45,624 nt of DNA from the NCBI GenBank assembly GCA_033193195.1, contig GCA_033193195.1_4326.1; one strand, given 5' to 3'. This DNA is from a phage. Shown in pieces: positions 742 to 782 of the stretch. The translations under genes were made by a program, and so were the position numbers. Below the pieces are notes generated by a model. The model was not told the DNA's origin. It made no database searches and was given only the letters and a program-made list of their open reading frames with translations. Position 1 is the first letter of the stretch, and each line of letters opens with the position of its first letter.

Positions 742-782
742 TACTTCATCGAAACGAAACACACGCTCTAAGGAATACGCAA

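Follow-up and report, generated by a model that had tools for sequence, protein, structure and literature searches.

A recurrent block at the predicted transcript start of PeSL-like promoter cassettes in a T1-like phage

Introduction

The T4-type phages RB49 and phi1 each carry about 50 promoter-early stem-loop (PeSL) cassettes (PMC2839356; PMC4122927), which unite a strong promoter resembling the sigma70 type, preceded by an AT-rich tract, with a stem-loop, often of the GGGG...CCCC type with G-T pairs, that lies between the -35 and -10 elements or over the -10 hexamer and acts as terminator or attenuator (PMC2839356). Two PeSLs of the RB49 family were promoter-active in reporter fusions, one wild-type PeSL reaching about 13,000 Miller units and most clones acquiring down-mutations, and terminator activity was demonstrated as well, for RB49 and phi1 only (PMC2839356). 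Recombination between PeSLs furthermore shuffles ORFan cassettes and yields mini-circles in both phages (PMC2839356; PMC4122927). From a different group of phages, a 21-nt direct repeat was described in TLS (aaATAGCACnnnTTGnTAAAA) and also found in T1, Rtp, and Rogue1; it is located about 76 nt ahead of start codons, was listed apart from only three predicted promoters, and its function (stoperator, enhancer, or UP element) was left open by the authors (PMC11447400). Here, we analyze a stretch of 45,624 nucleotides of phage DNA (NCBI GenBank assembly GCA_033193195.1, contig GCA_033193195.1_4326.1; the whole stretch is referred to as the window), in which the 12-nt block ATCGAAACGAAA recurs immediately downstream of -10 hexamers. 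We consider it rather probable that this block represents positions +1 to +12 of a composite promoter/terminator cassette that is present in multiple copies and is the Drexlerviridae counterpart of the T4-type PeSLs.

The Repeated Block

The window is the genome of a T1-like siphovirus of the Drexlerviridae that lies near the Braunvirinae phages ES, Rtp, and TR2, to which it is 75-92% identical across most of its length; its end runs on into its start, indicating a circularly closed assembly. Five exact copies of ATCGAAACGAAA are present, at 748-759 (+), 11879-11890 (-), 26903-26914 (+), 34461-34472 (-), and 43880-43891 (-), and the base before the block is C in all five. With up to two mismatches allowed, 12 matches were obtained as compared to 4.36 expected, a number reached in none of 100 shuffles, and a chance origin of the copies was thus rejected; for the five exact 12-mers in 45.6 kb, the chance expectation is about 0.005 by an arithmetic estimate. 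A recent duplication was likewise rejected, since the flanks of the five exact copies are unrelated. About nine further promoters of the window carry looser, T-poor variants of the leader. A repeated leader sequence had already been pointed out in a preliminary description of this DNA, and it holds with five exact copies plus looser variants, while two of the five positions had to be shifted (34460-34472 to 34461-34473, and 43875-43887 to 43880-43892 (-)). The distance of 5 nt after the -10 hexamer given there is true for the C of CATCG (TATGAT at 736-741, TACTT, C at 747), and all of the looser variants mentioned are found, although the one placed in the 45110s is actually located at 45128-45139 (-).

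Searching both strands of the window for an antisense partner or for copies outside promoters gave near matches at chance level only. No Rfam family matched the leader site in the window, the sole Rfam match being a tRNA gene elsewhere, at 22575-22647 (-) (RF00005, 58.9 bits), and ten loci taken from other phages were likewise searched against Rfam with no match.

In pairwise comparisons of the five exact copies, identity amounts to 1.00 for the leader, 0.86 for the upstream repeat described below, and 0.73 for the -10 hexamer, as compared to 0.33-0.44 for the spacer and the far upstream sequence and 0.26-0.35 past +12. Because the leader is identical while spacer and downstream sequence diverge, the conservation around ATCGAAACGAAA is a mosaic in which the block is kept by itself and not carried inside duplicated segments. 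The number of exact copies per genome falls from five in the window and four in Rtp to one to three in other Braunvirinae and none in T1, which carries looser versions of the leader, for example, ATCGACAACGAA and ATAGAAACGAAA.

Module Anatomy

The block lies at the 3' end of a roughly 62-nt module that consists of the upstream repeat ATAGCACnnnTTGnTAAA, a variable spacer of about 20 nt, the hexamer TAnnnT, 6 nt, and ATCGAAACGAAA. In all five exact copies, the leader lies 6 nt past the hexamer and 50 nt past ATAGCACnnnTTGnTAAA. The window holds 14-16 such modules, all of them directed at a nearby start codon, and in 405 of 477 unique modules from related phages, the hexamer is located 38 nt from the first base of the repeat. 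A profile of 63 modules from four genomes shows T at -12 in 90%, A at -11 and T at -7 in 100% each, and G at -14 in 70%; around the start, C-1 (63%), A+1 (83%), T+2 (67%), and A at +5 to +7 (78-84%) prevail. Between +3 and +12, the share of T is only 9%. Counted from the end of the TAnnnT hexamer, the A of CATCG takes the seventh position in virtually all family members. The seventh base past a -10 hexamer is the usual position of transcription start, and C-A-T is a common context around +1. Very probably, the block is hence where the transcripts of this family begin. The -35 region is weak (AAGACA or TAAACA at 16-18 nt, with no consensus TTGACA), and a consensus promoter scan of the window gave no enrichment, with 42 sites as compared to 40 expected.

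Conservation of orthologous promoters across eight complete genomes follows the same outline, with pairwise identities of 0.90 for the repeat, 0.84 for the -10 block, 0.82 for the leader, 0.78 for the discriminator, 0.69 for the spacer, and 0.60 for +13 to +24. Promoters with an exact or near-exact leader may represent a separate subclass: in eight Drexlerviridae genomes, TG at -15/-14 occurs in 14% of them as compared to 52% of the other members, their -10 hexamers are slightly weaker, and GAC follows the upstream repeat in 23% versus 5%. No link was seen between the leader type and either the A/T/G subtypes of the upstream repeat or the class of the gene.

The upstream repeat itself occupies -50 to -33 and is a dyad (TAGCA-N5-TGCTA) centred near -42. 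A repeat of the T1 type also accompanies some of the copies in T4-like phages, 38-39 or 49 nt before the -10 (loci L279, L281, L290, and L043), two spacings that are one helical turn apart. Its presence in T4-like early regions favours a host factor and suggests that the repeat is read by such a factor or by a subunit of RNA polymerase.

The Same Start in PeSLs and in Other Phages

The starts of RB49 PeSLs were read from the intergenic regions of the hyperplastic region with named PeSLs. Both PeSL227/226 and PeSL228/227 show the arrangement TAATAT/TAAGAT-N5-CATCGAAACGAAA exactly, and about ten other RB49 PeSLs continue with CATCGAAACGAGA, CATCAAAACGAAA, or CATACCGAAACGAA. Going by this sequence agreement, the block belongs to genuine PeSLs. 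When viral contigs were scanned for TAnnnT-N5-CATCGAAACGAAA, the search gave at least 120 stretches and at least 113 matches in new loci, the T1 repeat being present at only one among the matches listed. When the 14-mer CATCGAAACGAAAC was searched for with no -10 requirement, again at least 120 stretches were obtained; of the 120 listed, 81 have TAnnnT exactly 5 nt upstream, about 20 have another -10-like hexamer there, and about 18 look like random coding sequence, whereas TAnnnT would be met at a fixed offset by chance in only a few percent of cases (an estimate).

Many of these stretches are lambdoid prophages, in which the operator sets differ and the transcript start is identical. In HK639, for example, TAnnnT, 5 nt, and CATCGAAACGAAAC follow one another, with the hexamer annotated within the 'putative pL'; a putL-like antiterminator RNA is annotated from about +68, and the first open reading frame (ORF) lies about 190 nt away (about 280 nt from the block in another lambdoid example). 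The block is furthermore present in the T4-like phage KP15 (the locus being identical to GU295964 1-12354, the rIIA-topoisomerase early region) and in T4-like phages related to PG7/EC-F2 and the Cronobacter phages S13/LPCS28, where several copies per locus are found as in KP15. Contigs related to T4-like cyanophages (L226, L253, and L284) show CCCTG-TAGACT-N5-CATCGAAACGAAACG before at least three different genes; here, the ATG follows after about 8 nt and no Shine-Dalgarno sequence is present. The same 13-mer is found there in a very different host group (Synechococcus). The claim of the preliminary description that transcripts of the family begin with a shared sequence is thus well supported by the geometry and by homology to the RB49 PeSLs and the putative pL of HK639, as far as sequence comparison reaches. 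Since the same start is found in the same place at the strong promoters of unrelated phages, the block would belong to the promoter and not to a translation signal.

In bacterial genomes, the combination of -10 and leader occurs at about chance level (about 280 expected by estimate) and mostly in scattered coding sequence, for example, a conserved stretch encoding 'CPSIETK'. The exceptions are pL sites of lambdoid prophages and one Fur-box-like Vibrio promoter. The latter, conserved on Vibrio chromosomes (L384, L392, L443, L447, L453, L476, and L490), combines the Fur-box-like AATTTATGATAATTT with TATACT-N5-CATCGAAACGAAA, to which a small hairpin and then GAAAGCAC are attached. This may be the promoter of the small RNA RyhB, and it would represent a case of the same transcript start in a host.

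Stem-Loops around the -10 Hexamer

The members of the family in the window are listed below; the ORFs named are those predicted to be driven, and positions of +1 are predicted as well.

698-759 (+), cassette 1: repeat ATAGCACGAATAGATAAA at 698-715, -10 TATGAT at 736-741, leader ATCGAAACGAAA at 748-759 with +1 at A748; phage lipoprotein gene 783-1013 (Pfam Phage_lipoprotein)
11879-11940 (-), cassette 2: repeat at 11923-11940, -10 TATAGT at 11897-11902, leader at 11879-11890; 82-aa ORF 11615-11863 in the tail region
26853-26914 (+), cassette 3: repeat at 26853-26870, -10 TATATT at 26891-26896, leader at 26903-26914, inverted repeat GATGG/CCATC around the -10; small ORF 26929-27090
34461-34522 (-), cassette 4: repeat at 34505-34522, -10 TATTAT at 34479-34484, leader at 34461-34472, stem TGAGTTG/CAACTCA around the -10; ORF 34246-34440
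43880-43941 (-), cassette 5: repeat at 43924-43941, -10 TATCAT at 43898-43903, leader at 43880-43891, hairpin GGGGTA-tcat-TACCCC; Erf-like recombinase gene (ATG at 43867)
19762-19824 (-), member with short 5' untranslated region (5'UTR): leader ACGCAAACGAGA at 19762-19773, passing directly into the Shine-Dalgarno sequence GAGGAG
23465-23526 (-), variant member: leader ATCAAACAGCAA, spacer hairpin GGCATggATGCC and then TATAATTTATAT
24602-24663 (-), variant member: leader ATCAAAACGAGA at 24602-24613, stem TGGGATA/TATCCCA around -10 TATACT
27633-27694 (+), member at the helicase gene: leader TCAGAACAACAC, stem AGCGGC/GCCGCT around TATAAT, with compensatory changes of the stem in relatives
31038-31099 (-), variant member: leader ATCGAAAACAAC at 31038-31049, spacer hairpin CCGGAgtaaTCCGG abutting -10 CATAAT
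45128-45165 (-), promoter-like site with no upstream repeat: -35-like TTGGAC, -10-like CATCAT, leader-like ATCGAAAGCACG at 45128-45139

Across the family, the arms around the -10 pair best with their own partner, the mean longest stem being 4.48 as compared to 3.49 for pairing with arms of other promoters; none of 2000 permutations attained the observed value. At least six Watson-Crick pairs around the -10 are found in 34% of 467 unique modules versus 9.5% of controls with mismatched arms, and single mismatches in the stems of these 467 modules are distributed between G-T and A-C in a ratio of 20:4 (28:28 in the controls). Between orthologues, compensatory changes occur, for example, from AGCGG/CCGCT to AGAGG/CCTCT, and other modules contain a classical hairpin with a T-run inside the spacer. 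The excess of G-T over A-C mismatches points to RNA hairpins of the sense strand in read-through transcripts, which would be consistent with the terminator or attenuator role that has been proposed for PeSLs. Individual inverted repeats that co-vary around the -10 are located at 43898-43914 (-), 24615-24639 (-), 27656-27684 (+), and 34472-34494 (-).

Shuffling at the Block

The promoter of the window at 34522 (-) equals the ES promoter at 33924 from upstream through about +14, and from about +17 into the gene it equals the ES promoter at 34178. Accordingly, the window and ES are set apart by the insertion or deletion of a single promoter-plus-gene cassette, and its junction lies just past the leader. 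Promoter pairs were also compared between eight genomes, a spacer being regarded as shared at 85% identity or more: spacer and downstream gene are both shared by 33 pairs, the spacer is shared in front of unrelated downstream sequence by 27, and the gene is shared behind unrelated spacers by 22. Similarity stops at +2 to +16 in 22 of the 27 spacer-sharing pairs, and the similarity block containing the leader starts at -16 to -2 in 16 of the 22 gene-sharing pairs. Since similarities end and begin there, leader and -10 together constitute a hinge between two independently assorting parts.

A possible, if clearly less likely, explanation is hence that the block is mainly a patch of recombination homology, i.e., the downstream edge of a mobile cassette whose identity is kept by exchange or gene conversion and whose role in transcription is secondary. 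The junction at +14 to +17 between window and ES, the three classes of pairs, and the end of similarity close to the block would all be expected from such a patch, and PeSL-mediated recombination with formation of mini-circles is documented for RB49 and phi1 (PMC2839356). However, 12-13 bases are very short for homologous exchange alone, and the block persists at pL, present once per genome, in many lambdoid prophages whose operators differ, as well as in phages with different recombination systems. It is also conserved at orthologous sites though both flanks diverge, and a fixed position relative to the -10 is not required by recombination alone.

Transcript Start versus RNA Element

The reading as a transcript start within a promoter cassette can be examined by asking to what the block is tied. 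Its distance to the -10 is invariant, whereas the 5'UTR of leader-type modules extends over 24-35 nt, so that the block's spacing to the start codon varies over 12 nt; for all modules of the window, the 5'UTR measures 16-52 nt with a median of 24-30. In Rtp, AACGA is found within 30 nt before the gene in 12 of 19 promoter-proximal cases as compared to only 4 of 56 internal genes. Owing to this fixed spacing to the -10 and the near-absence of AACGA at internal genes, the block appears as a feature of transcript starts rather than of ribosome-binding sites in general. What lies downstream differs widely: a Shine-Dalgarno sequence 12-23 nt from the block in the T1-type copies, about 190-280 nt of structured leader at pL, or an ATG after 8 nt. 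Only the position behind the -10 is thus common to all contexts, which suggests that the block acts during initiation or at the very beginning of the RNA.

It is doubtful that the block acts in the RNA, where an unstructured and U-poor 5' end might offer the ribosome a standby or enhancer site or shield the message from RNase E. The mean predicted folding energy of +1 to +45 is -1.06 kcal/mol for leader-type transcripts as compared to -6.28 kcal/mol for random windows, start regions of promoter-proximal genes tend to be less structured than those of internal genes (-2.66 versus -4.31, p = 0.053) as well as T-poorer, and the short 5'UTRs would put the block within reach of the 30S subunit. Against such a role stand the variable distance to the start codon and the scarcity of the motif at internal genes, the remote first ORF of HK639-type pL promoters, and the cyanophage-like copies with their close ATG and no Shine-Dalgarno sequence; no single translational geometry is common to these contexts. 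Neither a narrow spacing to the Shine-Dalgarno sequence or ATG nor general use by genes was found, and the translational enhancer envisaged in the preliminary description accordingly fits less well. To our knowledge, neither the NAD-capping consensus nor complementarity to 16S rRNA fits the block. The near-nil structure of +1 to +45 is rather a useful by-product for translation.

That the block is a specific binding site at +1 to +12 (for an operator-binding regulator of phage or host, an antiterminator-loading factor, or an RNA 5'-end binder) is improbable. In favour of such a site, its exact identity is stronger than a kinetic optimum predicts, it contains the internal direct repeat CGAAA-CGAAA, a helix-turn-helix (HTH) regulator gene (38170-38643, phrog_2856) adjoins a promoter repeat, and a put-like antiterminator RNA follows it in lambdoid phages. 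Against it, the block is found in unrelated families of phages for which no common regulator is apparent, is not palindromic, shows a continuous transition to looser T-poor, A/C-rich variants and no all-or-none distribution, and heads T1-type 5'UTRs that, at 24-35 nt and -1.06 kcal/mol, are too short and unstructured for a put/nut-type RNA and match no Rfam family. A phage-specific regulator site, as also proposed earlier, is hard to square with this distribution and, like the enhancer, is a disfavoured reading.

Proposed Role in Initiation

Starting from the observed conservation, geometry, cross-family distribution, and mosaic junctions, we infer the start site and an effect on escape and promoter strength as follows. 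Host sigma70 RNA polymerase would recognize the TAnnnT hexamer, often together with G-14, aided by ATAGCACnnnTTGnTAAA located 38 nt upstream, and would initiate at the A of C-A-T, seven bases past the -10. The polymerase would then transcribe a T-poor, A- and purine-rich stretch that is free of -10-like elements and of structure, and such a start may help it to initiate at one defined site and to leave a very strong promoter rapidly, with an unstructured 5'UTR of 24-35 nt as a by-product. At the same time, the block may double as the hinge where promoter cores and downstream genes re-assort by recombination between cassettes. In large-scale measurements, initial transcribed sequences with slow escape had two to three T's among their first ~7 nt as well as TG motifs near +6 at which the polymerase pauses, productive yield was correlated with the content of purines, and output could differ by as much as three orders of magnitude depending on the first ~10 nt (PMC5961368). 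Being poor in T and rich in purines, and with neither a TG near +6 nor a -10-like hexamer, the block matches the features of fast escape in that study (PMC5961368).

Several points weigh against this proposal. Many of the compared promoters are orthologues, so that the counts given above are not independent. The exact identity of 12-13 nt across families exceeds what a compositional or kinetic optimum needs, we know of no case in which RNA polymerase reads sequence out to +12, and part of the identity could stem from recombination between cassettes instead of function. The idea that leader-type promoters are the strongest core promoters was found to be unsupported, TG being rarer and the -10 slightly weaker in them. 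Finally, a literature search for maps of 5' ends or transcription starts of T1-like (Drexlerviridae) phages found none.

More tentatively still, and with little confidence, one may ask whether (c)ATCGAAACGAAA(c) is a discrete promoter element that is read sequence-specifically by bacterial RNA polymerase or a universal host factor and that has spread or been convergently fixed across Drexlerviridae, several genera of Straboviridae, lambdoid pL promoters, and cyanomyophages. If true, it would represent a transferable 'start module' that sets promoter output as well as the borders of mobile cassettes, and not one good sequence among many.

Further Features of the Window

The last promoter module is split by the end of the sequence (45573-45624 and 1-27), with leader, Shine-Dalgarno sequence, and ATG at the start of the window. 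The HTH regulator gene at 38170-38643 (+), which has weak Cro/MerR-like matches in addition to phrog_2856, starts 13 nt from the repeat at 38140-38157 (-) in divergent orientation; this placement suggests autoregulation or a tie between the HTH protein and the repeat. Toward the end of this gene, at 38620-38680 (+), the repeat-like GCAGCACGAAAAGCTAAA precedes the hairpin GGATGTGCcataatcgGTACATCC, which ends in a T-run and has a -10-like CATAAT in its loop, so that terminator and promoter appear to overlap; the arrangement is kept in ES and Rtp, where the downstream genes differ. An orphan repeat with neither -10 nor leader is located at 40141-40158 (-), between a primase-like gene and a tail-fibre gene, and adjoins a bidirectional terminator-like hairpin at 40093-40110. 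It is found in the same place in Rtp, ES, and T1.

Implications

The cassettes described here join two separate literatures, one on the unexplained 21-nt repeats of T1-like phages and one on T4-type PeSLs. The T1-family repeats would thereby be recognized as upstream elements of about 15 promoters in each genome, hardly any of which are detected by conventional scans. A start shared by the strong promoters of unrelated phages furthermore offers a concrete, testable case for the initial transcribed sequence as a part of the promoter, and the block is a candidate portable part for strong expression cassettes. In addition, it marks points of gene exchange between related phages, which is useful for annotation and for understanding mosaicism.

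Comparison with Known Systems

The closest likeness is to the PeSLs of RB49, which share with the modules of the window the same start, cATCGAAACGAAA or cATACCGAAACGAA, many intergenic copies that each lie just before a Shine-Dalgarno sequence and start codon, a -10 of the sigma70 type, a stem-loop of the GGGG...CCCC type with G-T pairs near the -10, and a location at the junctions of gene-cassette shuffling. They differ in their genomic setting, the window being a 45.6-kb T1-like siphovirus (Drexlerviridae, Braunvirinae-like) and the PeSL carriers T4-type myoviruses, and in their upstream part, where the dyad repeat ATAGCACnnnTTGnTAAA, spaced at a constant 38 nt before the -10, replaces the AT-rich tract of PeSLs and no TTGACA -35 is present. 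In the accessible parts of the PeSL papers, the conserved transcribed start is not singled out (PMC2839356; PMC4122927).

The 21-nt repeat of TLS is the same element as the repeat of the window, shares its orientation, and lies similarly far from start codons, whereas the TLS paper does not link it to a -10 located 38 nt downstream, to stem-loops, or to a conserved transcript start (PMC11447400). Literature searches for TCGAAACGAAA returned unrelated papers only, with no mention of the downstream block found, and a search for 'ATAGCAC' gave primer matches only.

The pL promoters of the HK639 type have an identical TAnnnT-N5-CATCGAAACGAAAC arrangement, but occur in one copy per genome and are followed by a long, structured put-like leader, while a Shine-Dalgarno sequence follows within 12-23 nt in the T1 type. 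Well-known single promoters likewise resemble the block: T7 A1 (start cATCGAGAGGG, with no U from +3 to +20), T7 A3 (start ATGAAACGAcag), and T5 N25 all have +1 A in C-A-T and a purine-rich, U-poor stretch over the first 10-20 nt, and T7 A1 shares cATCGA with the block and T7 A3 shares GAAACGA, offset by one position. Each of these three, however, is a single promoter with a sequence of its own, whereas here one 12-13-mer recurs at many promoters and in many phage families. Compared with all of these systems, what is new is a PeSL-like cassette in a new phage family, with a different upstream element and a shared start block that had not previously been pointed out.

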